Shown here: positions 6,523 through 27,728 of the stretch, in pieces
Position numbering within the stretch: position 1 is the stretch's first letter
Layout of the letters: the number at the start of each line of letters is the position of its first letter
Assembly: GCA_021818685.1 (NCBI GenBank)
Contig: JAKATP010000005.1
Span: 1 to 54,188, forward strand
DNA from: Bacillota bacterium
Lineage (GTDB): Bacteria; Bacillota; Sulfobacillia; Sulfobacillales; JAIMBI01
Length of the DNA: 54,188 bases
Reading direction: 5' to 3'
Program-made: the position numbers and the translations under genes
The notes under the pieces: model-generated
Seen by the model: the letters and a program-made list of their open reading frames with translations, nothing else
The model's database searches: none
What the model was told of the DNA's origin: nothing

Positions 6523-7167
6523 CTAGTCGGCCTGGGAGCGGTGATCTCCGGGCTCGGGAAGATTGGTCCAGGGGGTGACGATCATTTGACCATGCTCGAC
6601 CCGGGCCACTTCGGCCCGGGGGGCCGACTCGCCCGGGGGAATCGCCCATATGCTGCCGATGCGTATCTGACTCGGTTCGAACCGCAGGGCGTAGATCGCG
6701 GCGCTTTCACGGTCAGGCTGCCCGGCCATGACCAGGCCGCGCAGGCGCCCGAGTACAAACACGTCGCCTCCGGAAATAACCCGCGCCCCGGGGTTTACGT
6801 CGCCTGCGACGACAATGTCGGCGGCGTGCTCCACGACCTGTCCGGATCGCAGTGTCATGCGCACGATGAGGGCCCCTTCGGGTGCAACCGCCGGCACCGC
6901 CTTCGGCGCGGCTTTCTGACCCTCTTGTACGACTCCGGCCAGCTTCAACGCCGGAAATGCATCGAAGTGGTGGGCGACGCCGCCTAACAGACGCTCGGAG
7001 AGGGGGAGGCCTGAAACCTCCACCACCAGCTCCGAACGCCCGAAAAACTGATGGTGACGCTCCAGCGTGCGCTGAAGGTCTTCCAGCAGCTCTTCTTCAC
7101 CCGAGAAACCGTGGGCTAGGATGCGAAGCCCGCGGCGATCGCCCTTGATATCCAAAAGATCCTCCAA
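6523..7167 (-). CDS. minC: Septum site-determining protein MinC
   Basis: IKGDRRGL N-terminus; TLRSGQ..GDVNPGA.VISGG.V.VLG.LRG...AG beta-helix. TTG start is approximate. Confidence 0.88.
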   Translation of the reverse strand: MEDLLDIKGDRRGLRILAHGFSGEEELLEDLQRTLERHHQFFGRSELVVEVSGLPLSERLLGGVAHHFDAFPALKLAGVVQEGQKAAPKAVPAVAPEGALIVRMTLRSGQVVEHAADIVVAGDVNPGARVISGGDVFVLGRLRGLVMAGQPDRESAAIYALRFEPSQIRIGSIWAIPPGESAPRAEVARVEHGQMIVTPWTNLPEPGDHRSQAD

Positions 7168-7586
7168 AAGTCTGTCTAGCCCTATCGTTCCACGCCTAAG
7201 CGCGGAGATCCTGCCGGCACGCGTCGAAGTGGTCGGACACGTCGAAAGGCGAGGGCGGGCGAAGGGTGCGTCGGAGGTGCGGTTCGCCTGCGAAATTTGT
7301 TGGATTCTCATAGGCGGCCCTCTGGTACCGGGGGGTCCCGAAGCCCGAAGACGTTCATCGGGAAGAGGAGCGGCTTTCGTGCCGGGGAGAAGAACGGCCT
7401 TGAGCCGGACTTTCGTCCTGCGGACGCGGACCGGACCTGCCTTGAGGCTGCTTGTTGTCGAACTGGGCTGTCGATAGTCTCGAGTGCGCCCTCTAAGGCT
7501 CTCTGGCCGGCGGGGCGAAGCCGCGGCGCGGTCCGCTCGCCATCGGGGCACCCGTCGCCTTTGTCACGGGATGGCCTTTGACCTCG

Positions 7587-8651: not shown

Positions 8652-8795
8652 CGCTCACCTCCCCCGACCGATTCCAAGATATCATTGACCGTCATGCACG
8701 CGCGTCCGCGCCCACGTCGGCCGCCTGGGATACCTGCCGCGGCGAACCTCGGGGCTGAAGCCGACGCGCCCGGCTTCACCCTGAAGCGGGGATTC

Positions 8796-10301
8796 TCAGG
8801 ATCCAATCCCCATGTGGCTCCAGATTATCTGACTGAGAGTGTCTAGAGTTTGGATGCCGTACGCTTGGGAGGGATTGCCCGACGACAGGATCGCCACCAC
8901 ATAGTTCCGGCCACTGCCTGCGACATGTCCGATGCTGTTGATTTCCCAGCCTCCGGGGACGGAAAGCCAGCCGTTTTTGAGCGCTACCGTGGCTCCACCC
9001 GTCGCTCCGGTCGACACTCCCCAGGCCTCCCATCCGACGACATGGGTCATCAGCTGGGCCTCGTACTGCTGGGACGCGGCCGTCAGTACGGGATTCGGAT
9101 AGCTCAATAGGCGGAGCAGTTCGACCTGGTCGACGGCTGACGTCTTGGTGAGGCCCCAGTAACCGCCTCGGGCGGGCGTGGTGTCAACCATGCCGGCCAC
9201 CTTGAGAAACTGAGCGATGCCGGCGCTGCTCCCGGCATCGAACCAGAGTGCGGTGGCTGCCGAGTTGCTGCTCGACTCAATCATGGGGACGGCCAGCTGC
9301 TGCTCCGCCGGGGTCAGCGGATGTCCAGACATCTGCGACTGCCAAAGGAGGGTCGCAAGGATCGTCGTTTTCACGATGCTGGCGGTGTCGAAGTCGTCGA
9401 GGGTGGGGTTAAACGTGTAGGTGACTCCGTCTTGAGCATCGTACACGGCGGCGGACACGGTTCCGGCACGACCGGCCAGGTAGTCCCGAAACGCCGTGCC
9501 GAAGGGGTTGGGTCCGGGCGCGGCCAGCGTTTGCCAGGCCGCAGTCAGCTCGGCCACCATTGCCTGGTGAGCGTGGAGCTGCTGGTCCGGGGTCCGGGTC
9601 AGATAACTCCCGGCCGATCGCACGGCCGCTTGGGCCTCGGTCCACCCGGTCCAGTTGGAGTTAGCTCCGGACAGTTTCTCGCGGAGCTTCTGCAGCAGGG
9701 CCAGCACATCTTGCGGTTCTCCACCGACGAGGCCTCCGCTGGCCCGCGACAGCTCGTTGGCGGCACGGGTCCAGGCGGCCGCCGCCTCGGTCCAGTCTGC
9801 GGCCAGGCGCAACAACGCGTCGGGTGTGTGGGCCGCGCCCAGATCCCGCTTCAGCTGGAGGGACGAGAGGGTGGAGCGGCTGCCCTCGAGGTGACGGAGC
9901 GCCGTGAAAGCATTAAGGGCTCGCTGGCGCGCCATCCGTGTGACGTGCGTCACCACTGCGGCTGTGTCCTGCCTGAGGTGAGTGAGCTCGGACGCCCCTC
10001 CCCCGAACCAAACACGGGGGAGGGGGTTAAAGGGGTTTTGGGCTTGCCATTGAGCGAGGGATGCGTGCAAAGGTGCCAGGGCCCGGGCCGGCACGCCTTC
10101 GCGGCGGTCGCTTTGCCATTCCACCGCGAGCCGCGCTGCGTTTTGATCGAAGGACCGGGCCCGGGCGGCCGCGAACAATGTGCCTCCGACGCCCAGCGCT
10201 GTCGCGGCGCTGACTGCCATGATGAGCGGCCACCGTATGCGGGATCGAGGATGGAGGTGCCGTCTGGCGGGATGGGTCTCGGGCCAGGACAGGGGTGGCA
10301 C
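8796..10301 (-). CDS. Secreted serine hydrolase, class A beta-lactamase-like C-terminal domain with helical N-terminal region
   Basis: TM segment; SxxK (ASIVK), SxN (SSN) and KNG motifs in the C-terminal half. Confidence 0.8.
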   Translation of the reverse strand: MPPLSWPETHPARRHLHPRSRIRWPLIMAVSAATALGVGGTLFAAARARSFDQNAARLAVEWQSDRREGVPARALAPLHASLAQWQAQNPFNPLPRVWFGGGASELTHLRQDTAAVVTHVTRMARQRALNAFTALRHLEGSRSTLSSLQLKRDLGAAHTPDALLRLAADWTEAAAAWTRAANELSRASGGLVGGEPQDVLALLQKLREKLSGANSNWTGWTEAQAAVRSAGSYLTRTPDQQLHAHQAMVAELTAAWQTLAAPGPNPFGTAFRDYLAGRAGTVSAAVYDAQDGVTYTFNPTLDDFDTASIVKTTILATLLWQSQMSGHPLTPAEQQLAVPMIESSSNSAATALWFDAGSSAGIAQFLKVAGMVDTTPARGGYWGLTKTSAVDQVELLRLLSYPNPVLTAASQQYEAQLMTHVVGWEAWGVSTGATGGATVALKNGWLSVPGGWEINSIGHVAGSGRNYVVAILSSGNPSQAYGIQTLDTLSQIIWSHMGIGS

Positions 10302-10471
10302 GAGGGTGGGGGCTCCCTTCAGGTATTGGTAATCACAACGCTATAGACGCCTTCTAAGTCACAGACGGCGCATTAGACGGACAAGTCCGGGAGGCCCGCA
10401 ATCGGGTATGGGCCGGAGAAAGAACTCCGGATCCGGGCGACCGGTATGACCGCGCCTCGCCGCTTTGCTAA

Positions 10472-10503
10472 TTGCCCACCCCCCGGGGGGAGGGGAGTAT
10501 ACT
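10472..10503 (+). promoter_or_regulatory. Putative CsoR operator overlapping csoR-copA promoter
   Basis: C-tract/G-tract pseudo-palindrome CCCACCCCCCGGGGGGAGGG followed by a TATACT -10, typical of CsoR-family operators. Confidence 0.6.
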
Positions 10504-10551
10504 GTTGAGAACAGAGTCGAACGAGGGCGGGGGATGAAGGGAGGAGCGGAT

Positions 10552-10854
10552 ATGCTGCCCGAGTATAAGGCCGATGCCAGCCACCGTCTGAAGGGTGCAG
10601 TCGGACATTTGAGGGCGGTCGAGCGCATGGTCGCGGAAGAACGCTACTGTGTGGACATCATGAAGCAGCTGGCCGCCGTGCAGGCGAGCCTCGAAGGTGT
10701 GCAGCAGGTGCTCTTGAAGAATCATCTGTCGACCTGCGTGACCGACGCGATCCTGGCAGGCTCAGGAGATTCGCTCATTCACGAATTGGTGCAGGCGCTG
10801 CGCTACAGCAAAGGGATTCCGCCGGCCGAAGCGCTGACGGTGACATCGGGCTGA
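10552..10854 (+). CDS. csoR: Copper-sensing transcriptional repressor CsoR family
   Basis: RL....GH....RM.....YC.DI..QL.AV......H...CV; GGAGG RBS; directly upstream of copA. Confidence 0.9.
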   Translation: MLPEYKADASHRLKGAVGHLRAVERMVAEERYCVDIMKQLAAVQASLEGVQQVLLKNHLSTCVTDAILAGSGDSLIHELVQALRYSKGIPPAEALTVTSG

Positions 10855-10882
10855 CCGCACGTAACGGGAAAGGGAGAAGGCG

Positions 10883-13800
10883 TTGGCACTCGGAAAGACG
10901 GCACCACCGGACACAGCCGCGGAAACGTCCGTGCAGATCGGCATCGTGGGCATGACGTGTGCGAGCTGTGCTCTGCGCATCGAGAAGGGACTGTCCCGTC
11001 TGGAAGGCGTGGATGGCGTCCGGGTGAATTTCGGCACGGAGAAAGCTACGGTGCGTTTTGATGCGAAGGCCGTGGATCCGTCGCGGATTGTGGCCAAGAT
11101 CCAGGATGTGGGCTACAAGGCCATCACCAGCACCATGCGGCTCCGAGCGGTGGAACCATGGTCGGAAGCTAAGGCGGCCGAGGCACAGTCGATCATAGCG
11201 GCGATGCCCGGCATCGTGACGGTCCGGTTTGAAGCAACATCGGACCTTTTGGTGGCCCAGTACCTGCCCGACACGGTGGGTTCGGCAGACGTGCGGCGGG
11301 CGCTGAAGGACCACGGCCTGACGACCGAGGACGTGGGTCAGGAGAAAGATGCACTGCACGAAGCACGCGCGCACGAAATTCGGGGCTGGCTCCGGCGCTT
11401 TATGGTGGGCGCGGTGGTCTCGCTGCCACTGGCCATTGGGCTTGTAAGCCGGATAGCTGGCCATCCCATCCTGATGAACCCATGGCTGCAATGGGGGTTG
11501 GCCACCATCGTGCAGGCTTACGTCGGCGGGTTCTACTACGTGGATTCCTTCCACAACCTGAAGAACCGGAACGCCAATATGTCCGTGCTGGTGGCTCTCG
11601 GGACTTCGGCCGCGTACGTGCTGAGCGCGGGTCTCACGCTGGCCGGGTCCCGCCATGTGCTGTACTTCGATGACGCGGCCTTGGTGCTGACGCTCGTGAG
11701 CCTCGGAAAATACATCGAGGCGCGGGCCAAGGGTGCATCCTCAAGCGCCATGAAAGAACTCATGGGCCTATCTCCCAAAGAGGCCCATGTGGTGGTGGAT
11801 GGGGTGGAGACGTCCATGGCCGTCGACGACATCGAGCCGGGTATGGAATTGGTGGTGAGGCCGGGCGAGAAGATTCCGATCGACGCCGTCGTTACGGGGG
11901 GGCGAAGCCGGGTCGACGAGTCGATGCTGACCGGTGAGCCGGTACCGGTCTCGAAGGCGGTCGGGGATGAGGTCGTGGGTGCGACCTTGAACCAGACCGG
12001 GATGCTGCGGATCAAAGCGCTCAAAGTCGGCCGGGACACCGCCCTTGCGCAGATCGTGGCGTCGGTGGAGAGCGCGCAGGCCCAAAAAGCCCCCGTGGAG
12101 GGCCTGGCCGACCGCATCGCGGGCATCTTCGTCCCCGTGGTGCTGGTCATTGCCGTCGTGACGTTTGCGGTGTGGGCACTCGTGACGGGCAACGTCATCC
12201 ACGCCATCCTGCCGGCCGTGACCGTCCTCGTGGTGGCGTGTCCGTGCGCCCTCGGGCTGGCGACCCCGACGGCCGTGACAGCCGGGGTCGGCGTGGGGGC
12301 ACGGCGCGGCATCCTGATTCGGGGGGGCGAGTATCTCGAAGCCGCGGCCGGGATTAATGCCGTCGTCTTTGACAAGACCGGGACCATCACGCGCGGAAGG
12401 CCGAGTGTATCCGAAGTGCGGGCGGTCGGCGGCGGCGAGGGGGACGGGTCCCGCGTGCTGCAATGGGCAGCGGCGGTGGAGCGGTTCTCCGAGCACCCGT
12501 TCGGGCAGGCACTGGTGGAAGCGGCCCGGGACCGCGGACTCCCGGTGCCGGAGGCGTCAGACTTCGATGCGACCGTCGGCCGCGGGGTGTCAGGACTGGT
12601 GGACGGTCATCGGATTCAGGTCGGGAATGTCCGCGCCTTGGCCGATGACGGCGTCGTTAGCGAGGCGCTGGAAGAGACCGCGCGGGCATGGGAAGCCGAC
12701 GGGCAATCCGTCGTGTACGTAGCGGTGGATGGCCAAGTTGTGGGTGCGGCGGCCATTTCCGACGCGATCAAGGACACGGCCGCAGAAGCCGTACGGGCGC
12801 TCCAGCACGACGGCCTCGCTGTATATCTCCTGACGGGTGACAATCGGCGGGTGGCGGAAGCCGTCGCCCGCCGGGTCGGCATTCCGGACGGGCATGTGCG
12901 CGCGGAGGTGTTGCCGGAGGCCAAGGGCGCGGCCGTCGCCGCGCTCCGGGCCGGGGGGCTTCGGGTGGCTATGGTCGGGGACGGGATCAACGACGCCCCC
13001 GCCCTGGCCACGGCCGACCTCGGGATCGCCATCGGCACCGGTACTGACGTCGCCATTGCCGCCGCCGGCATTACGCTTATGAGCGGTGATGTCCGCGGCG
13101 TGGCGGGCGGGCTGCGGCTGGCGCGCAAGACGCTTGGAAAGATTCGGCAGAACCTCTTCTGGGCGTTTATCTACAACGTCATCCTGATCCCGGTGGCCGC
13201 TGTCGGCTGGCTGGCACCCGTGTTCTCGGGCGCCGCCATGGCGATGTCGTCTATCCTGGTGACCAGCAATTCGGCCCTGTTGAACCGGGTCAATCCGTAC
13301 GCGGGCTTGACGGAGACGGAGGCCCGGTGGGCCGCCACCGACGGAGCGGACGCCGACGGAGCGGACGCCGACGCGTCGGCGACCGCGAGCGATCCGGTCT
13401 GCGGGATGACGGTGCGCGTGGGAGACGCCGCGGGCCGATTCACCTATCAGGGGGAGACGTACTACTTCTGTGCGAAGTCGTGTCTGGAGGAGTTTCGTGA
13501 AGACCCGGAACGATTCTTGAAAGGGGAGCGGATAGAGATGGCAGAGGCTGAAGCGGGAACGGCCGTCGATCCCGTGTGTGGGATGACCGTGAAGATTGGA
13601 CAGGAGGCCGCGCGCCATACCCACGAGGGCATCACCTATTACTTCTGCGCGCGGTCCTGCCACGAAGAGTTCCAAGCCGACCCCGAGCGATTCTTGAAGC
13701 GATCCGGGGGCGATACCGAAGCGATTCGGACAGCCGTGGACCCGGTTTGCGGGATGACCGTCATGCGGGAGTCGGCGGCGGCGCGCCTCGACTGGGAGGG

Positions 13801-13888
13801 CACCACCTATCTCTTCTGCGGGTCGGGCTGTTTGAAAGCCTTCGTGGCGGACCCAGACGCTTACACCAAGACCGGTACGGACGCCTGA
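10883..13888 (+). CDS. copA: Cu(I)-translocating P1B-type ATPase with N-terminal HMA domain and three C-terminal YHS/TRASH domains
   Basis: [37 protein letters not shown] and MAMSS motifs; three DPVCGM...YxFC...C repeats. Confidence 0.95.
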
Positions 13889-13961: not shown

Positions 13962-14765
13962 TCAGCGGATGCGATCCCGTCTGCCGCGCCATCGGACGGC
14001 GGCACGCTTCTTCGAAGGCGTTCCCGTGTGCCACACATCGTATCCGGCCCGACGCTCCACGCCTGCCGGTCTGCCGGTGCGGATGAGCTCCGCAAAGAAT
14101 CGGGCAGGAGGCACGGGGACGCCATTCACCGCAAACGCACGGTCGCGCTCCGCGGGCGCATCAGGGCGAGAGGCGGTCTTCTGCGCTGCCGTGCTGGCGT
14201 TGTTGATAAAGGCCAGCACGGCCTCGGCGGTGAGCGCGGTGGCCGGCATAACAAGGGCGCTCACCCCCGCCTCTTGAGCCCACGCCTCGACGCGCCGCGC
14301 CCGGTCCGCGTCGGGTACCGCGACGACCATGCGGCCGCCATGGGCTTGCAGGAACCGCGCGAGCTTGTCATTCCACGCGCCCCGACGTTCGGTGCCTCGA
14401 TCGGCTTCGAGCGCGATCCGATCATGGCGCCCCTCGGTGGACACCAGCCAGCCGTCGGGGCGGTAGCTCGCGTCGCTCCCGTAAGAGGCCGGTTCGAACC
14501 GCCATGGCGGGGCCAGCGGGGCGAGTCGCACGTACATCTCGGCGACCATCTCGCGGTGGCGGGAGCCGCGCCGGGGGCAGCGCGGATGCCAGTAGGCTCC
14601 CGCATAGGCCAGCGCCTCGCCATCCTCTACGAGGCGCCGCAGGCGCAGGCCCGCCGCCTGCGGCGTCGACCCGCTGAGTACGGCTGCCTGGCCCGCGGTC
14701 AGACGGCCCACGGCCGTAAGCGCTCTTTGGAGCGTCTCAAGTTCCAGGCCGGCTCGCGGACTCAC
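13962..14765 (-). CDS. Replication-relaxation (Replic_Relax / MOBC-like) protein, wHTH + PD-(D/E)xK-like domain
   Basis: N-terminal wHTH-like LT..Q.....RLRRL; conserved H (RHRE); YRPDG...IALEADRGTE...W.DKL..F motif; start overlaps the upstream ATPase stop. Confidence 0.7.
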   Translation of the reverse strand: MSPRAGLELETLQRALTAVGRLTAGQAAVLSGSTPQAAGLRLRRLVEDGEALAYAGAYWHPRCPRRGSRHREMVAEMYVRLAPLAPPWRFEPASYGSDASYRPDGWLVSTEGRHDRIALEADRGTERRGAWNDKLARFLQAHGGRMVVAVPDADRARRVEAWAQEAGVSALVMPATALTAEAVLAFINNASTAAQKTASRPDAPAERDRAFAVNGVPVPPARFFAELIRTGRPAGVERRAGYDVWHTGTPSKKRAAVRWRGRRDRIR

Positions 14766-16213
14766 AGTCCGGAAGTCCTGGGCGGAAACAGGCGAACGAG
14801 GCGGGGAGGGCGCTGCCGTCCGCGAACCGTCGGAATCAGCACGGCCCGCCCTCGGGGAAGATAGCGGGCTTCCGGAAATGAAGACGGCAACGCCTCCCCC
14901 TCGAGTCGGCGAAGGTCTCCCGCGGCTGTCCCGCCTAACACGAGCCGGGTGCGGGCATTGGCGAGGACCGCCTCCTGAAGCTCGGGGGAGAGCTGTCCCA
15001 AATCCTGGTGCGCCAACACGATACTCACGCCGTAGCCGCGGATCATGGCCAGCACGTCGGCCAAGTCAGGTGATACCCACTGATGAAATTCATCCAGGTA
15101 AAGAACGTGCCGAAGACCCCCGTGGGGCCCTGCCCGATACGCGGCCTGGACGAAGAGATGCCACATCAGTACGCCCAGGCCGCGGGCTCCGAGACCCAAT
15201 TCCGCCGGGCTCAGGGTGGCAAGCAGCACGAGGTCCGAAGCGAGCACGTCGTCGAAATCAAAGTCAAAGGGTGGGGAGAGGGCGGCGGCGGCGCCCGGAT
15301 GCATCCGGAGGCTTTGGAGGCGGTTTAGGAGGCCAATCTCCAGATCGAGCTGCCGTCCCGGCGGAAGGGCCCCGAATTCGTGCTCGAAGAACCGATCGAT
15401 GCCGGGGTCCTGAACCTCGCGACGAAGACGGTTTCGATAGGGCGCGTCGTGCACGATGCGTTCGACAGCGTCCAGATCCGCCCGGTCGGCCAGCGCCGCC
15501 TTCGCCAGTTGGACCGCGTGGACCAGCACCACGCGCCCGAGGGTGCGGTAGAAGGGATGGGCCCCCGGTTCCATCTGGTCCAGGGCGACCGCCAGTGCCT
15601 CGCCGGCGGCCGCACTCGCGCCGGCCAAAAGATTCAGATGGGGGCAGGCGGGATCTGTTGGGTCAAACGGCACGACCACCCGTCCGGCCGCCAGCGCCCG
15701 GCGTCTGGCCGCGTCCGCGAGGTCGCCCTTCGGCTCCATCACGGTCACGCCGACGCCGCGCTGCAAATCCTGGTCAATCCAGGGTTCAAGCGCCGTCGTA
15801 GATTTACCGGAGCCGGTGGGTCCGAGGACATGGACATGAAGGAGCCGGTCGGGGTCCCGAGCCGTCAGGGGATAGCCGAAAACGCTCCGTGCGAGGACCA
15901 GCCGGTGGCCGGTGCGGGGGCCGATGCGCGCGACGACGGCGGCGACGACGGCGGCGACGAAAAGGGCTGCCGACAATGGCAGGGGGAGGAGAGAGGCGGC
16001 GGCCGCGGCGCCCGGCAGCCAGGTCAGATGCCGGCGGGATCCGGCTATGACGACGCCAAGGAGGAGAGCTGCGGACGGGCCCAGGACGGCGGGTTGCGGC
16101 AGGGAGAAGAGGTGCGAGGCACGGAGACTCACGAGAATGAGTGCGGAGACAAAAACGGTAACACATCCCGTCCACTGCAGGACGGGATGTCCCAGAAACT
16201 CTCTTAGGCGCAT
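14762..16213 (-). CDS. VirD4/TraD-like type IV coupling ATPase, membrane-anchored
   Basis: N-terminal TM helices; H.HVLGPTGSGKS Walker A, EPKGDL, LYLDEFHQ Walker B, RGYGVSIVLAHQDLGQL. Confidence 0.85.
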   Translation of the reverse strand: MRLREFLGHPVLQWTGCVTVFVSALILVSLRASHLFSLPQPAVLGPSAALLLGVVIAGSRRHLTWLPGAAAAASLLPLPLSAALFVAAVVAAVVARIGPRTGHRLVLARSVFGYPLTARDPDRLLHVHVLGPTGSGKSTTALEPWIDQDLQRGVGVTVMEPKGDLADAARRRALAAGRVVVPFDPTDPACPHLNLLAGASAAAGEALAVALDQMEPGAHPFYRTLGRVVLVHAVQLAKAALADRADLDAVERIVHDAPYRNRLRREVQDPGIDRFFEHEFGALPPGRQLDLEIGLLNRLQSLRMHPGAAAALSPPFDFDFDDVLASDLVLLATLSPAELGLGARGLGVLMWHLFVQAAYRAGPHGGLRHVLYLDEFHQWVSPDLADVLAMIRGYGVSIVLAHQDLGQLSPELQEAVLANARTRLVLGGTAAGDLRRLEGEALPSSFPEARYLPRGRAVLIPTVRGRQRPPRLVRLFPPRTSGL

Positions 16214-16387
16214 GGCAGCCGGCCTTCATTTCATTAAGTCATAAAGGGGATCGCCGGCCCTCATGGTGTCAGGGCTGCCGGGCCCTCCGCAGACCGCGAA
16301 CTCCCTATTATTGGCGGCCTTTCTTGGACGGCCGCCCGATTCCTCTTTGTGACGTCCCCCAAAACAGCCGAGAAGCTCGGTACGGCG

Positions 16388-17797
16388 CTACTCTCCTTCC
16401 CAGTCCACGGTCCCGACGGAGGGAAAGCCCGCGAGTGCTTTTTCCAAATCGTTCTTAATCTGGCTGAGATGCTCGTCCGTATCGGCCTCGGCGCGGAGGA
16501 CGAGGGCGGGCTGGGTGTTGGAGGCACGCACGAGCCCCCATCCGTAGGGATAGTTGACTCGCATCCCGTCGACGTCGATCACCGGGTAGCGTGCCTGAAA
16601 CTGACCTCGGAGCGCCGTCACCACCCCGAACTTCTCTTCGTCGGGACAGGTGACCCGCACCTCCGGGGTGCTGGGTAGACGCGGTACGTCGGCCAGGAGC
16701 GCGGAGAGCGGGAGATCGCTCTGCGAGAGAATCCGCAGGAGACGCCCGGCCGCGTAGAGCGCGTCGTCAAATCCGTAGTACTCGTCGGCAAAAAACATGT
16801 GGCCGGACATCTCGCCTGTGAAGACCGCGCCCACCTCCCGCATCCGGGCCTTGATGAGTGAGTGGCCGGTCTTGAAGAATTCCGGCTCGCCGCCGAGCCG
16901 GATCACCTCGTCCACCAGGGTCTTGGAACACTTGACCTCGATAATGGCGCGTGCACCGGGATATCGAGCCAGAATCTCCCGCCAGTAGAGGATCATAAGT
17001 TGATCGCCCCACAAGATCTGGCCCCGGTCGTCCACGACCCCGATCCGATCTCCGTCGCCGTCAAACGCGATCCCGACGTCGGCGCCGGTCGCTTTCACTT
17101 CATCGATCAGATCCGCCAGATTCTTCGCGACGACCGGGTCTGGATGGTGGTTCGGAAACGTGGGGTCCGGCGTACAGAAGAGGGGCACCACTGACTGCAC
17201 CCCATAGGCGCGCATGACGGACTCCGCAAACAGGGCGGCGGTGCCGTTTCCCGCATCCACCACGACTTTGAGCGGGCGGGGACCGAGTGTAATCTTCTCG
17301 GCCAGCATGGCGATGTAGTCCGGAACCGGGTTCCGGTGCTCGACACTGCCCCTCTCGATGGAACGGTCATCGGCCTGCGCGGCCGAGTGCTTGTCCACCT
17401 CCCGCTCCATGAGCCGGCGCACGTCCTGAATCTGCTCGCCGTAGATGGTGGCGGGACCGAGCGCCAGTTTAAAGCCATTGAACTCGGCCGGGTTGTGGCT
17501 GGCCGTGATCATGACTCCGCCATCCACGCCGTAGTGAACGCGCGCCCAATAGAAGATGGGCGTGACGACGGTACCGATGTCAATCACGTGTCGGCCGACG
17601 GCCGTGAGCCCTTCCACCAGCGCATTCCGGAAAGCCGGGGACGACGCTCGCGTATCGTAGCCGACTAACACGTCACGGACGCCCCGCCGCTCCAGATAGG
17701 TGCCCCACGTGCGACCGAGCCGCTCCACGTCAGCCTCTACAATATCGGTCCCCACCACGCCGCGGATGTCGTATTCCCGAAAAACACTGGGATTCAT
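16388..17797 (-). CDS. Phosphomannomutase/phosphoglucomutase (AlgC-like)
   Basis: FREYDIRG, TASHNP, FDGDGDR, GEMSGH, VRASNTQP. Confidence 0.95.
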   Translation of the reverse strand: MNPSVFREYDIRGVVGTDIVEADVERLGRTWGTYLERRGVRDVLVGYDTRASSPAFRNALVEGLTAVGRHVIDIGTVVTPIFYWARVHYGVDGGVMITASHNPAEFNGFKLALGPATIYGEQIQDVRRLMEREVDKHSAAQADDRSIERGSVEHRNPVPDYIAMLAEKITLGPRPLKVVVDAGNGTAALFAESVMRAYGVQSVVPLFCTPDPTFPNHHPDPVVAKNLADLIDEVKATGADVGIAFDGDGDRIGVVDDRGQILWGDQLMILYWREILARYPGARAIIEVKCSKTLVDEVIRLGGEPEFFKTGHSLIKARMREVGAVFTGEMSGHMFFADEYYGFDDALYAAGRLLRILSQSDLPLSALLADVPRLPSTPEVRVTCPDEEKFGVVTALRGQFQARYPVIDVDGMRVNYPYGWGLVRASNTQPALVLRAEADTDEHLSQIKNDLEKALAGFPSVGTVDWEGE

Positions 17798-17922
17798 GGC
17801 CGCCCCCCGCCTTGCTTTTGTCCTGAGGATAGCCGCGACACCGAGGTGGGGCAAGACGACCCCTTCCGATTATCGGGTTGTCCGTGGGGACGGGGAGCCA
17901 GACTGACCGTAGACGACAGCGA

Positions 17923-24792: not shown

Positions 24793-25782
24793 GTGGATAG
24801 AGAGCTGGCGCTCGAAATGGTGCGGGTCACGGAGGCCGCTGCCATCGCCGCCGCCCGGGTGATGGGACGCGGCGACAAGATCGCAGCCGATCAGGCGGCG
24901 GTGGACGCCATGCGGAGCGCCCTCAGGACGGTGGCGATTCAGGGGCGGGTCGTAATTGGCGAAGGCGAGCTGGATGAGGCCCCCATGCTGTTCATTGGAG
25001 AGCAGGTGGGCAACGGCGACGGCGATCCGGTCGACGTGGCCGTCGACCCGCTCGAGGGCACCAATCTGGTCGCGAAGGGCATGAACGGAGCCATCGCCGT
25101 CATGGCCATCGGTCCCGCCGGGAGCCTCCTGCATGCTCCCGACATGTACATGGACAAATTAGTGACGGGATCCGCCGGGCGAGGTGTGATGGATCTGGAT
25201 GCCCCGATCGGCGACAATCTGCGGGCACTGGCACACGCAAGCGGACGCCCGGTGAACGATCTGACAGTGGTCGTGCTGGACCGGGACCGGCATCGTGAAC
25301 TCATCGCGGGCATCCGTGACGCGGGCGCCCGGATCAAGCTCATCAGCGATGGCGATGTCACCCCGGCGGTGGCGGCATGCCTCGAGGGTTCGGGGGTTGA
25401 CATGCTGGCCGGGAGCGGCGGTGCGCCCGAAGGTGTGCTGGCGGCGGCGGCGGTGAAGTGCCTGGAAGGCGAAATGGTGGCGCGGCTCCTCCCCGAAGAT
25501 GACATCCAGCGTGAACGTGCGGAGGCCATGGGCGTCCGGCCGATTGACCGGATCCTGCGTCTTGATGACTTAATCCGCGGAGACGACGTCTTGTTTGTGG
25601 CGACTGCCATCACCGATGGAGATTTTCTGCATGGGGTCCGGTACACGAAGGACGCAACGCGCACCGAAAGTGTCGTCATGCGCTCTCTGACGGGAACCGT
25701 GCGATTTGTCGAAGCCGAGCACCGGCTCGAAAAGAAGCGGCGTTTCGGGCGAACCCCGGACGCGGGAAGGATGCGTGCTTAA
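24793..25782 (+). CDS. glpX: Class II fructose-1,6-bisphosphatase
   Basis: VIGEGELDEAPML, DPLEGT, APDMYMDK, DGDV, GGAPEGV. Confidence 0.96.
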   Translation: MDRELALEMVRVTEAAAIAAARVMGRGDKIAADQAAVDAMRSALRTVAIQGRVVIGEGELDEAPMLFIGEQVGNGDGDPVDVAVDPLEGTNLVAKGMNGAIAVMAIGPAGSLLHAPDMYMDKLVTGSAGRGVMDLDAPIGDNLRALAHASGRPVNDLTVVVLDRDRHRELIAGIRDAGARIKLISDGDVTPAVAACLEGSGVDMLAGSGGAPEGVLAAAAVKCLEGEMVARLLPEDDIQRERAEAMGVRPIDRILRLDDLIRGDDVLFVATAITDGDFLHGVRYTKDATRTESVVMRSLTGTVRFVEAEHRLEKKRRFGRTPDAGRMRA

Positions 25783-27728
25783 TGGCGAATGACCCGACCG
25801 AGGAGGTCAAGAAGCCGACGCGTCGACGTCGGACCCAGACCGAGGCATCGCCGGAGTTAGAGAGCGTCGAAGTAGCAGCCACGCCCGCGGCGGAAACCGT
25901 CGCAGCGGCCGAATCTGCCCCCAAGCGGCGGGGGCGTCCTCGCAAGAGCCCTGTCGAATCGGCCCCGGATCCGGCTCCTGAGACGGCAGCCGTTCCGAAG
26001 ACTCGGCGGAGAAGGACTTCCACCCGCGGCGCGGCCGCGGCTTCGGAGGCGACGGTTCCGCAGATGACACCGGAGATGGCGCCCGATCGAGCTCCCGTTA
26101 CGACGGCACCCGCCGCGCCGGTGGCTCCTGCTCCCTCTCCAGATCCCGTGGCCGTCATTCCCGAGGCGCCGGTGACGGGTGACTCGGAGGCCGCGATCGC
26201 TCCGCCGAAATCCCCCGAGTCGGTTCCGCAGGCGGTGAACGGGCAGTCTCGTGTCCCGAGACCCTCCGTGCGGCCCGTGCCCCCAATGGGACCGCGCGGG
26301 CAGCGAGGCGGACGCAACGACCGGTTTCGCGACCGGCAGCGGGGCCCGGCCCCCAATGGCCGCCGTGATGACCGCAGAGGCGTCCCGCGCGAGAATCGGG
26401 AGCCGCGCGAAATGCGGGAATTTCGCGAGCCCCGGGAGGCGCGCGACACGCGCGAACCCCGGGAGCCGCAGCTTACGATTACGCAGCTCGAGGAAATGCC
26501 GCTCCTCGACCTCTACAAGATGGCCAAGGCCCTTGATATCGCGGATTACCGGTCGGTCACCAAGTCTGACCTCATGTGGGAGATTCTCCGCGCTCGGACT
26601 CATCGGGACGGTCTCATCTTTGCCCAGGGTCTTTTGGATGTCGTCGGCGACTTCGGCTTCCTCCGGCCGGCGGACTTTGCCCGCAGCCGCGAGGACGTCT
26701 ACGTGTCGGGATCTCAGATCCGCCGGTTCGATCTGCGTCCCGGGGACCTCGTGTCCGGTCAGGCGCGGCCGCCCAAAGAGGGAGAGCGCTACTTTGCTCT
26801 CCTGCGCGTGGAGGGTGTGAACGGTCTCTCCCCCGAGAAGGCGGCCGAACGCATCGATTTTGACGCGCTCACGCCTGTCTTCCCCGACCAGCGTTATCGG
26901 CTCGAAGTGACACGGGACGAGTTAGCCACACGCTTGGTCGACATCATCGCCCCCATCGGGATGGGTCAGCGTGGCCTGTTGGTGGCGCCCCCCAAGGCCG
27001 GCAAGACCGTACTCCTGAAGAAGATCGCCAACGCCATCGTGCACAACCATCCGGAGGTTCACCTCATCGTCCTCTTGATTGACGAGCGCCCGGAAGAGGT
27101 CACGGACATGCAGCGCTCCGTGCGTGGCGAGGTGGCCAGTTCGACCTTCGACGAACCACCGGAGGATCACATCCGCGTGGCCGAGATGGTGTTAGAGCGT
27201 GCGAAACGGCTGGTGGAGACGGGACGCGACGTGGTCATCATGCTCGACTCCATCACGCGCCTGGCCCGCGCGTACAATCTGACGATCCCGCCATCGGGCC
27301 GCACTTTGTCAGGGGGCATGGACCCCGCGGCGCTGCACAAACCCAAGCGTTTCTTCGGTGCGGCCCGCAATCTGGAGCAAGGCGGAAGTCTCACCATCCT
27401 GGCCACCGCGCTGGTGGAAACCGGCTCGCGGATGGACGACCTCATCTATGAGGAGTTCAAGGGCACCGGCAACATGGAACTGCATCTCGACCGGCGTCTG
27501 GCCGAGCGCCGCATCTTCCCGGCTATCGACATCAAGCGGTCCGGCACTCGCAAGGAGGAACTCTTGCTGTCGGCCGAGGAGCTCGAAGCCATGTGGGCGA
27601 TCCGAAAGGCGATTCACAAGCTTGATACCCCGGAGGCGACGGAGCTTCTCATGAGCAACCTGAAGCGCACCCGAGCCAACGCCGACTTCTTCCGGGCCTT
27701 TGCGGCCATGGCGGAAAACGGCGGTTAG
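25782..27728 (+). CDS. rho: Transcription termination factor Rho with long low-complexity N-terminal extension
   Basis: [50 protein letters not shown]. Confidence 0.97.

Follow-up and report, generated by a model that had tools for sequence, protein, structure and literature searches.

A coupling ATPase and a MOBC-type protein kept side by side on the chromosomes of acidophilic Bacillota: a possible domesticated conjugation module

[quoted passage not shown] We analyzed a 54,188-nt stretch of DNA from a genome of the order Sulfobacillales (the window; contig JAKATP010000005.1), in which a gene of each kind lies side by side. Open reading frame (ORF) A encodes a VirD4/TrwB-type coupling ATPase, or type IV coupling protein (T4CP), and ORF B encodes a protein of the Replic_Relax family, to which the MOBC relaxases are assigned. 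The two genes recur across the order at a fixed chromosomal position. In our reading, the two form the part of a conjugation-type machine that would process DNA and couple it to the channel; the machine would be chromosomal and domesticated since ancient times. We give this function a probability of about 0.5. Because the pair is a stable host gene set here, marker-based tools would miscall a mobilizable island in every genome of the order.

The described systems closest to the pair in their parts would be the mobilization modules that join a VirD4-type protein to a MOBC relaxase, namely those of the class-8 integrative mobilizable elements (IMEs) of streptococci, MobB/MobC of CloDF13 and TraX of pAD1. 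CONJscan equates PF13814 with MobC, which pairs with a VirD4 coupling protein (PMC5357655), and MOBC relaxases are reported to form no covalent DNA intermediate (PMC12857230). A and B belong to the same two families and are likewise adjacent and co-oriented, the prototypes being compared by description only. TraX is described with the winged helix-turn-helix (wHTH) plus PD-(D/E)xK architecture that we find in B (PMC12857230, PMC5357655). Unlike these modules, the A–B locus has no integrase, plasmid backbone or att sites, occupies a fixed chromosomal site order-wide and has no close plasmid homologues; its B protein also carries a lineage-specific C-terminal domain. In Bacillus phage 0305phi8-36, a MobC-like relaxase lies beside a VirD4-like ATPase outside a conjugative element (PMC3357382), so that a T4CP–MOBC pair appears reusable in other contexts. 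The phage operon differs from A–B in being phage-borne and non-essential, with an ATPase that lacks a membrane anchor (PMC3357382).

In evolutionary status, the closest counterpart would be the chromosomal type IV secretion system (T4SS) of Patescibacteria, which is described as homologous to the monoderm MPF-FATA machinery, with dispersed t4cp genes (PMC12102498). Also alike are the lineage-wide presence, the VirB2-like pilins, the location of t4cp genes at a distance from virB4, and a VirB4 with an additional ORF (TrsD-like) that looks like the VirB4 N-terminus; where a relaxase is present there, it is most often of the MOBC class (PMC12102498). Relaxases are described as mostly absent and t4cp as not essential in Patescibacteria, whereas a MOBC-type gene is kept here beside the T4CP order-wide (PMC12102498). 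The hosts differ too, being free-living acidophilic Bacillota, and their channel locus is fused with Tad-like genes. The T4SS, Tad and StbA backbone reported for Sulfobacillus plasmids and ICEs shows the same unusual mix: CpaF/TadA and TadB/C occur there with a VirB4-like protein, the actin-like StbA and a coupling protein like TraG (PMC6803676); contig C202 of our genome resembles it. This backbone points to the kind of element from which the core genes may derive. Those systems are strain-variable and are reported to carry a MOBP relaxase (PMC6803676), unlike the core A–B pair.

Thermus thermophilus transjugation uses a membrane-bound hexameric ATPase of the HerA/FtsK type, TdtA, and an adjacent NurA-like nuclease, which are proposed to push donor chromosomal DNA out of the cell without a classical relaxase or origin of transfer (oriT) (PMC5365140). 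Its ATPase and nuclease belong to families other than those of A and B; TdtA is carried by a 14-kb ICE, active and located at a tRNA gene, and no T4SS takes part (PMC5365140). By this comparison, the TdtA/NurA pair would be a functional analogue of A–B. Archaeal Ced and Ted and Helicobacter ComB are conjugation-derived, chromosome-fixed systems that serve their hosts in DNA transport or uptake; to our knowledge, they have neither a relaxase nor a VirD4-type coupling protein. A full-text literature search found no description of a core T4CP–MOBC pair or of a core T4SS in the Sulfobacillus group. Among the papers returned for a T4SS in Sulfobacillus, only the S. thermotolerans genome paper discusses one, which is placed there in a plasmid-like region.

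The initial annotation took ORF A for a membrane-anchored VirD4-like ATPase, and profile, membrane and fold evidence all bear this out. Three Pfam families match above their cut-offs: T4SS-DNA_transf (1.2e-10, 41.3 bits against 20.1), TrwB_AAD_bind (3.1e-7, 30.1 bits against 20.5) and TraG-D_C (7.5e-7, 29.6 bits against 22). Three hydrophobic stretches lie within residues 10–101 of the N-terminus, a region modeled as long helices (residues 10–33, 41–75 and 78–97). The Walker A (GPTGSGKS, 131–138), Walker B (LYLDEF, 371–376) and AHQD (401–404) motifs are invariant in 18 orthologues. The AlphaFold2 model of A has a predicted local distance difference test score (pLDDT) of 89.2, and its best solved Foldseek match is TrwB (1e9s, E 1.6e-12, template modeling score 0.63 over ~428 columns), followed by Cag-beta and DotL, with HerA, VirB4 and DndH-C ranked lower. 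A thus combines the Pfam models, the N-terminal anchor with a P-loop and the TrwB-like fold, including the all-alpha domain, that characterize a T4CP. No named NCBIfam T4CP equivalog fits it: the best of eight matches, conju_CD1115, reaches 36.7 bits against a cut-off of 250, and since every match falls far under its cut-off, A would by its sequence form a distinct T4CP subfamily. NCBIfam CedB and CedD cover the P-loop only (E 5e-4 and 8.6e-3). A replacement of FtsK/SpoIIIE by A was also considered and rejected, as an FtsK_SpoIIIE gene is present on contig C203.

ORF B had been described as a wHTH protein with an RPD..ExDRGTE signature and as MOBC-like, and this too holds up. The protein matches Pfam Replic_Relax (PF13814) with 26.7 bits against a cut-off of 25.3, its translation contains the motifs YRPDGW and LEADRGTE, and PF13814 is matched by all 33 aligned members of the B family, the best at 8.2e-13. 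The AlphaFold2 model (pLDDT 87.6) divides into a winged helix (residues 1–64, wHTH matches with Z 9–9.8), a PD-(D/E)xK nuclease domain (67–195) and a small beta domain (about 205–260) that is lineage-specific. The nuclease fold, which the relaxase assignment presupposes, resembles Bax1 (Z 9.5, root-mean-square deviation 3.6, 118 aligned residues), BstEII (Z 9.4) and Can2 (Z 8.8), and Foldseek also relates it to FokI (E 4.6e-4). Its site comprises H70, P103-D104, E120, D122, E126 and K134. Five of these (H70, P103, D104, E120 and K134) do not vary across 25 sequences, even with 16 distant Replic_Relax proteins and the C202 paralogue among them. A homologue search with the B profile yielded 11 proteins, each annotated as 'hypothetical protein' or as 'replication-relaxation family protein'. 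Among 1.84 billion representatives, the profile matched 55 sequences at E<=1e-30, 76 at E<=1e-10 and 1014 at E<=1e-3; the B subfamily is thus small and isolated from the bulk of Replic_Relax. MOBC relaxases are expected on a plasmid, ICE or IME; B has a fixed chromosomal position across the order, no recombinase gene on its contig and no plasmid match.

The two proteins are predicted to bind each other. The modeled A–B complex has an ipSAE score of 0.79, compared with 0.00 for the best of three controls. Of 157 solved complexes, 116 attained this value, as did 2 of 215 mismatched pairs; because the A–B prediction used our own alignments, these counts apply only approximately. Prediction runs had at least 55% of contacts in common, with a partner pLDDT of at least 72. 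Specifically, the C-terminal beta domain of B (residues 232–250) is placed against residues 170–192 and 310–328 of A, the first of which overlaps an invariant stretch of A (P185, N194, L196 and G198). We know of no solved T4CP–MOBC complex, so a memorized prediction seems unlikely. As a natural T4CP–MOBC pair with a compact predicted docking interface, A–B bears on how MOBC relaxases hand DNA over to their coupling proteins.

ORF A is present in 37 of 41 genomes of the order, and its identity declines with kinship, from 83% and 70% within the genus to ~50% within the family and 39–49% within the order. The four absences (G020, G028, G032 and G039) look like assembly gaps, because G020 has an N-terminal fragment of A at a contig edge downstream of the neighboring PGM/PMM-family gene (PMM) and the other three lack PMM as well. 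B adjoins A in 29 of the 41 genomes by single-protein search; with a hidden Markov model (HMM) of B, it follows A as the next ORF in each of the 20 relatives examined. In the same 20 relatives, PMM is encoded upstream of A, on A's strand and no more than about 5.3 kb away, and a MinC_C-domain gene lies downstream of B in 16 of them, giving a conserved order of permease, PMM, A, B and MinC-like gene. In a distant clade, where A is 36–38% identical and B detectable at ~1e-6, the MinC_C gene is the divergent neighbor of A in 9 of 12 loci. The junction between A and B, which reads ...ctGTGAgt... in the source genome (G000), is overlapping or nearly abutting in relatives too (for example, loci L042, L043, L046, L050, L051 and L005). 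The same genes occur in records named Sulfobacillus thermotolerans, S. acidophilus, S. benefaciens and S. harzensis and in many 'Bacillota bacterium' metagenome-assembled genomes, and the Kr1 record has an A homologue at about 2.667 Mb. At one locus (L040:8754-9525, genome G013), B is found in two overlapping ORFs (8754-9371 and 9313-9525), which may reflect a frameshift or a sequencing error.

The history of A follows that of its housekeeping neighbor. The trees of A and PMM have every well-supported clade in common (Mantel r 0.825, with none of 2000 permutations as high), and this congruence, together with the fixed position, spans three families of the order. Within the genus, the ratio of nonsynonymous to synonymous substitution rates (dN/dS) is 0.13–0.16 for A and 0.31–0.37 for B, compared with 0.09 for PMM and 0.11 for CopA; dS is alike for A, B and the neighboring genes, and B evolves ~3 times faster than A. 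In four metagenome runs from four studies, contigs bridging the locus are colinear over copA, B, A and PMM, and they differ from the window by a single indel, a 12-nt in-frame deletion (four codons) at 15930 in the membrane part of A that is common to all four runs. Given the order-wide presence, the fixed synteny, the PMM-congruent tree and the purifying selection, A–B is very probably a vertically inherited core pair maintained by selection. The possibility left by the initial annotation, that the pair is a strain-specific, decaying fragment of a known ICE or plasmid, does not agree with an order-wide distribution, intact frames and low dN/dS.

The genome encodes its own candidate channel at a second core locus. 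A T4SS/Tad-like cluster on contig C190 (components in Table 1) contains a VirB4-like gene downstream of gatA-gatB, a tRNA-methyltransferase-like gene and a thioesterase gene, and its gene order is kept beside gatA-gatB in 10 of 10 relatives. The VirB4-like and TadA genes have dN/dS values of 0.065 and 0.077; a value of 1.41 for the TadB-like ORF was left unused, since we take it for an artifact of an ORF call that was extended or shifted in error. With the monoderm VirB4 model NF045971, 39 of the 41 genomes of the order give a match, and the classical VirB4 family PF03135 matches one of 41 relatives and not the source genome. We sampled 151 genomes of the class with a sensitive family search for the VirB4-like gene: all 41 genomes with an A-type gene had a VirB4-like match and none was without one, while genomes lacking A divided into 14 with and 96 without. 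The statement in the initial annotation that VirB4/Mpf genes are absent is therefore right for the window and wrong for the genome, and equally conserved candidate channel genes of the genome itself speak against a channel borrowed from another element. In the complete genome G008, a duplicated thioesterase gene flanks the T4SS/Tad-like cluster (L110, C1:1601500-1620500), and extra partial VirB4-like matches lie ~12 kb from it (G008:C1:1597824-1599082).

These results are best read as showing that A and B descend from a conjugative element, in which they formed the module of coupling protein and MOBC relaxase, and that they no longer belong to one. B would bind DNA through its winged helix and would nick or cut it with its intact PD-(D/E)xK site. 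The lineage-specific beta domain at its C-terminus would dock onto the soluble part of A, and A, acting as a hexameric P-loop ATPase of TrwB/VirD4 type anchored in the membrane, would feed the DNA, or B together with DNA, into a channel, most likely the genome's own conserved T4SS/Tad-like apparatus at the second core locus. The net function would be chromosomal DNA transfer under host control, by export or exchange. The invariance of the nuclease site makes DNA the likely substrate; we infer this substrate, the role of the second locus as channel, and the transfer's direction and purpose. The initial annotation had offered a domesticated ATPase-nuclease DNA-processing system as its second choice, and this is the part of its proposal that fits the evidence.

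Several observations weigh against this interpretation. No oriT-like conserved element or repeat was recognized beside the pair, either in a repeat search or in a three-genome spacer alignment, and the A–B locus and the C190 cluster are unlinked, on separate contigs. B clears its PF13814 cut-off narrowly, evolves fast and is without the C-terminal docking domain in the distant clade, and the ATPase domain of A also matches a defense model (discussed below). On the channel side, the VirB6-like assignment is weak (TrbL_4, E 0.027), and all NF045971 matches in the order fall below the curated NCBIfam cut-off. The class-wide co-occurrence is partly trivial, as kin genomes are non-independent and outlying A hits may sit on VirB4-bearing elements, and at an equal threshold 4 of 14 control genomes are matched by the VirB4-like HMM as well. 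When a single protein served as query at E<=1e-20, 16 genomes had A and no VirB4-like hit. These 16 were dropped as evidence of independence, since the family search removed all of them and the VirB4-like gene was present in 5 of 5 that were rechecked.

A more far-reaching version of the domesticated-module reading is tentative, and we hold it to be rather doubtful as a whole. It would make A–B part of a complete core conjugation-type machine, vertically inherited since before the order diversified and split over at least two loci, that exchanges host chromosomal DNA between cells, with B nicking at one or several chromosomal origins of transfer. The machine would consist of a pilin, a VirB6-like protein, VirB4, a VirB11/TadA-like ATPase, the coupling protein and the MOBC-type nickase, and would be a bacterial, relaxase-bearing counterpart of archaeal Ced and of Thermus transjugation. 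If the pair does work with the T4SS/Tad-like locus, conjugation machinery would have been domesticated together with a relaxase-type nuclease in free-living bacteria. Host-controlled exchange of chromosomal DNA in acid-mine and bioleaching communities would then be testable, some Sulfobacillus species being cultivable.

The rival explanation that survives best, although we consider it unlikely, is a channel-independent ATPase-nuclease system, acting in plasmid or phage defense like MAD7-MAD8 of MADS or as a membrane-associated pair for DNA repair or clearance. A matches the PADLOC defense model mad8 (6.5e-16, residues 126–435), its fold is also like those of HerA, DndH-C and SIR2/HerA ATPases, and the nuclease domain of B resembles restriction enzymes and Can2. 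MADS itself includes an ATPase-nuclease module, MAD7-MAD8, of the same general composition as A–B (PMC13662399). The resemblance ends with A: no PADLOC model, and hence no MADS model, matches B at E<=0.1, and a MADS locus, defined by a mad1-mad8 operon with a methyltransferase and both ATPase-nuclease modules, is not what surrounds the pair, which has no mad1-6, other mad gene or methyltransferase beside it. Defense systems are typically patchy and island-borne, whereas A–B is a core pair, order-wide, syntenic and co-diverging with a housekeeping neighbor. TrwB, Cag-beta and DotL outrank the HerA-type ATPases structurally, and the presence of a VirB4-like gene in every A-bearing genome of the class sample also speaks for a channel.

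Next, and likewise improbable, is that A couples the core T4SS/Tad-like machine to a protein substrate or to pilus building, with B acting mainly as a DNA-binding regulator. Replic_Relax is described by Steczkiewicz et al. as a predicted transcriptional regulator fused to an HTH domain (PMC3424549), and the Patescibacteria study considers its T4SS co-opted for non-conjugative roles, mostly without relaxases (PMC12102498). That no oriT was recognized beside the pair would also fit this explanation. A pure regulator would have no need of nuclease-site residues that are invariant both in the subfamily and in the wider family, and the predicted docking of B on A by a dedicated domain is what a substrate or adaptor would show. 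Retention of B next to A in 20 of 20 relatives likewise weighs against this explanation.

The first proposal of the initial annotation, a minimal mobilization module that moves the adjacent copper-resistance genes through a foreign channel, is very unlikely. As an active module of this kind, A–B would be an integrated mobilizable element without an integrase. Its appeal lies in the use of VirD4 and MobC as the mobilization module of streptococcal class-8 IMEs (PMC5357655) and in the consideration that neighboring DNA would move if B nicks nearby. A second pair of T4CP-like and Replic_Relax genes in the same genome adds to it. On contig C202 (L105:999-8649), where this pair lies, an actin-like ALP gene and one that is RcpC-like precede it; its first member is a T4CP-like ATPase of 1209 amino acids with a fused GGDEF diguanylate-cyclase domain, and its second a 334-amino-acid Replic_Relax protein (E 8.5e-11). 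Its copy number varies among relatives; it is probably element-borne and probably shows what the mobile version looks like.

The copper genes themselves are newcomers to the core locus. A block of csoR-copA, a beta-lactamase-like gene and a phosphoesterase gene separates B from the MinC_C gene in G000 and G001 only. In G002, of the same genus, the phosphoesterase gene directly follows B with no csoR-copA there, and in relatives beyond these three the MinC_C gene lies within about 0.1–2 kb after B. As csoR-copA stands beside B in G000 and G001 only, it is a late insertion, and the link of the pair to copper resistance is incidental. The marks of an IME are also missing: the contig has no integrase or excisionase and no att repeats, and the pair, instead of varying in presence, keeps a fixed position, with a congruent tree, across three families and is colinear in four populations. 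None of the genome's 8 tyrosine-recombinase and 10 serine-recombinase matches falls on the window's contig, and the window holds no tRNA gene. In the four metagenomes, no excised form was supported; candidate joints had sides of 21–44 nt, nearly all in conserved P-type ATPase motifs of copA and coming from contigs of other organisms, and one joint lay inside the pair (14306-15482, one contig, side 21).

Plasmid and phage collections gave no close counterpart of the pair. Against 72,556 PLSDB plasmids, tblastn found no match to B at E<=1e-3 and none to A at 1e-10. At 1e-3, A had 16 weak matches; the best (27% identity, with 60% of the query covered) is on a megaplasmid of Brevibacillus that has a 'replication-relaxation family protein' close to its T4CP. 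A had no tblastn match in 50,697 phage records. That the pair is instead a functionless, decaying remnant of an ancient integrated conjugative element is hardly tenable: the lack of flanking element genes, the ~3-fold faster evolution of B and its split at L040 agree with decay, but nearly all relatives keep both frames intact across order-level divergence, dN/dS stays well under 1, the catalytic and Walker residues are invariant and the sole population indel is in frame.

The source assembly measures 3.09 Mb in 246 contigs, and the window is ordinary core chromosome, with xanthine-dehydrogenase-type, cytosine/purine permease, paaABCD, murJ, rho, prfA, prmC, sua5 and upp genes and the atp operon. 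Table 1 gives the positions of the pair and its neighbors, which agree with the initial annotation of two intact, translationally coupled ORFs between copA and PMM. Its remark that there is no compositional shift stands as well: G+C over the pair is 0.709 and 0.676, and other 1-kb bins of the window reach 0.70–0.72, so both values are within the spread.

Table 1. Positions in the window of the A–B pair and of neighboring or otherwise mentioned features, and composition of the T4SS/Tad-like cluster on contig C190.
Feature	Position	Strand	Description
ORF A	14762..16213	minus	483 amino acids, ATG start; membrane-anchored VirD4/TrwB-type coupling ATPase (T4CP-like)
ORF B	13962..14765	minus	267 amino acids, GTG start; winged-helix and PD-(D/E)xK Replic_Relax (MOBC-type) protein
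GTGA overlap	14762..14765	minus	4 nt common to A stop TGA and B start GTG; translational coupling
PMM-A spacer	16214..16387	minus	174 nt; ribosome-binding region
PGM/PMM-family gene	16388..17854	minus	Pfam PGM_PMM I-IV; conserved upstream neighbor of A, anchor of ancestral synteny
csoR-copA block	10465..13888	plus	Pfam; convergent with B; late insertion, outside module
copA	10883-13888	plus	1001 amino acids
Beta-lactamase-like gene	8796-10301	minus	501 amino acids
MinC_C-domain gene	6523..7551	minus	342 amino acids, Pfam MinC_C; ancestral downstream neighbor of B, displaced in the source genome by inserted genes
rho	25782-27728	plus	648 amino acids
C190 cluster	L104:326-8087	minus	Beside gatA-gatB; order-wide core
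T4SS pilin	C190 cluster		PF18895, 1e-8, above cut-off
Polytopic membrane protein, VirB6-like	C190 cluster		TrbL_4, weak assignment
Small membrane protein	C190 cluster
201-amino-acid ORF	C190 cluster		Resembles N-terminal part of VirB4/TraC
VirB4-like ATPase, 559 amino acids	C190 cluster		conju_CD1110, 1.7e-52
CpaB-like protein	C190 cluster
374-amino-acid protein	C190 cluster		No family assignment
TadA/VirB11-like ATPase	C190 cluster		TIGR03819, 6.7e-65
TadB-like and TadC-like proteins	C190 cluster

The spacer between PMM and A contains ATGA(A/G)GGCCGGC twice, in copies 35 nt apart (direct repeat D3), and repeats near the pair are short and present in two copies only. An alignment of G000, G001 and G002 shows that this spacer is poorly conserved, with only the part proximal to the start codon kept. 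In the MinC_C-domain gene of the window, the MinC_C domain spans residues 229–325 only and is preceded by a long N-terminal remainder without a family; a second MinC_C gene of the genome lies on contig C59. Linkage to MinC was considered as a functional clue and dropped, as the neighbor is a second MinC_C paralogue and conserved synteny alone accounts for the linkage. CopA carries three C-terminal YHS/TRASH metal-binding domains beyond its P-type ATPase core. The beta-lactamase-like protein has its Beta-lactamase2 domain at the C-terminal end only and is fast-evolving (dN/dS 0.22). Farther along the window, Rho has ~230 residues ahead of its Rho_N domain.

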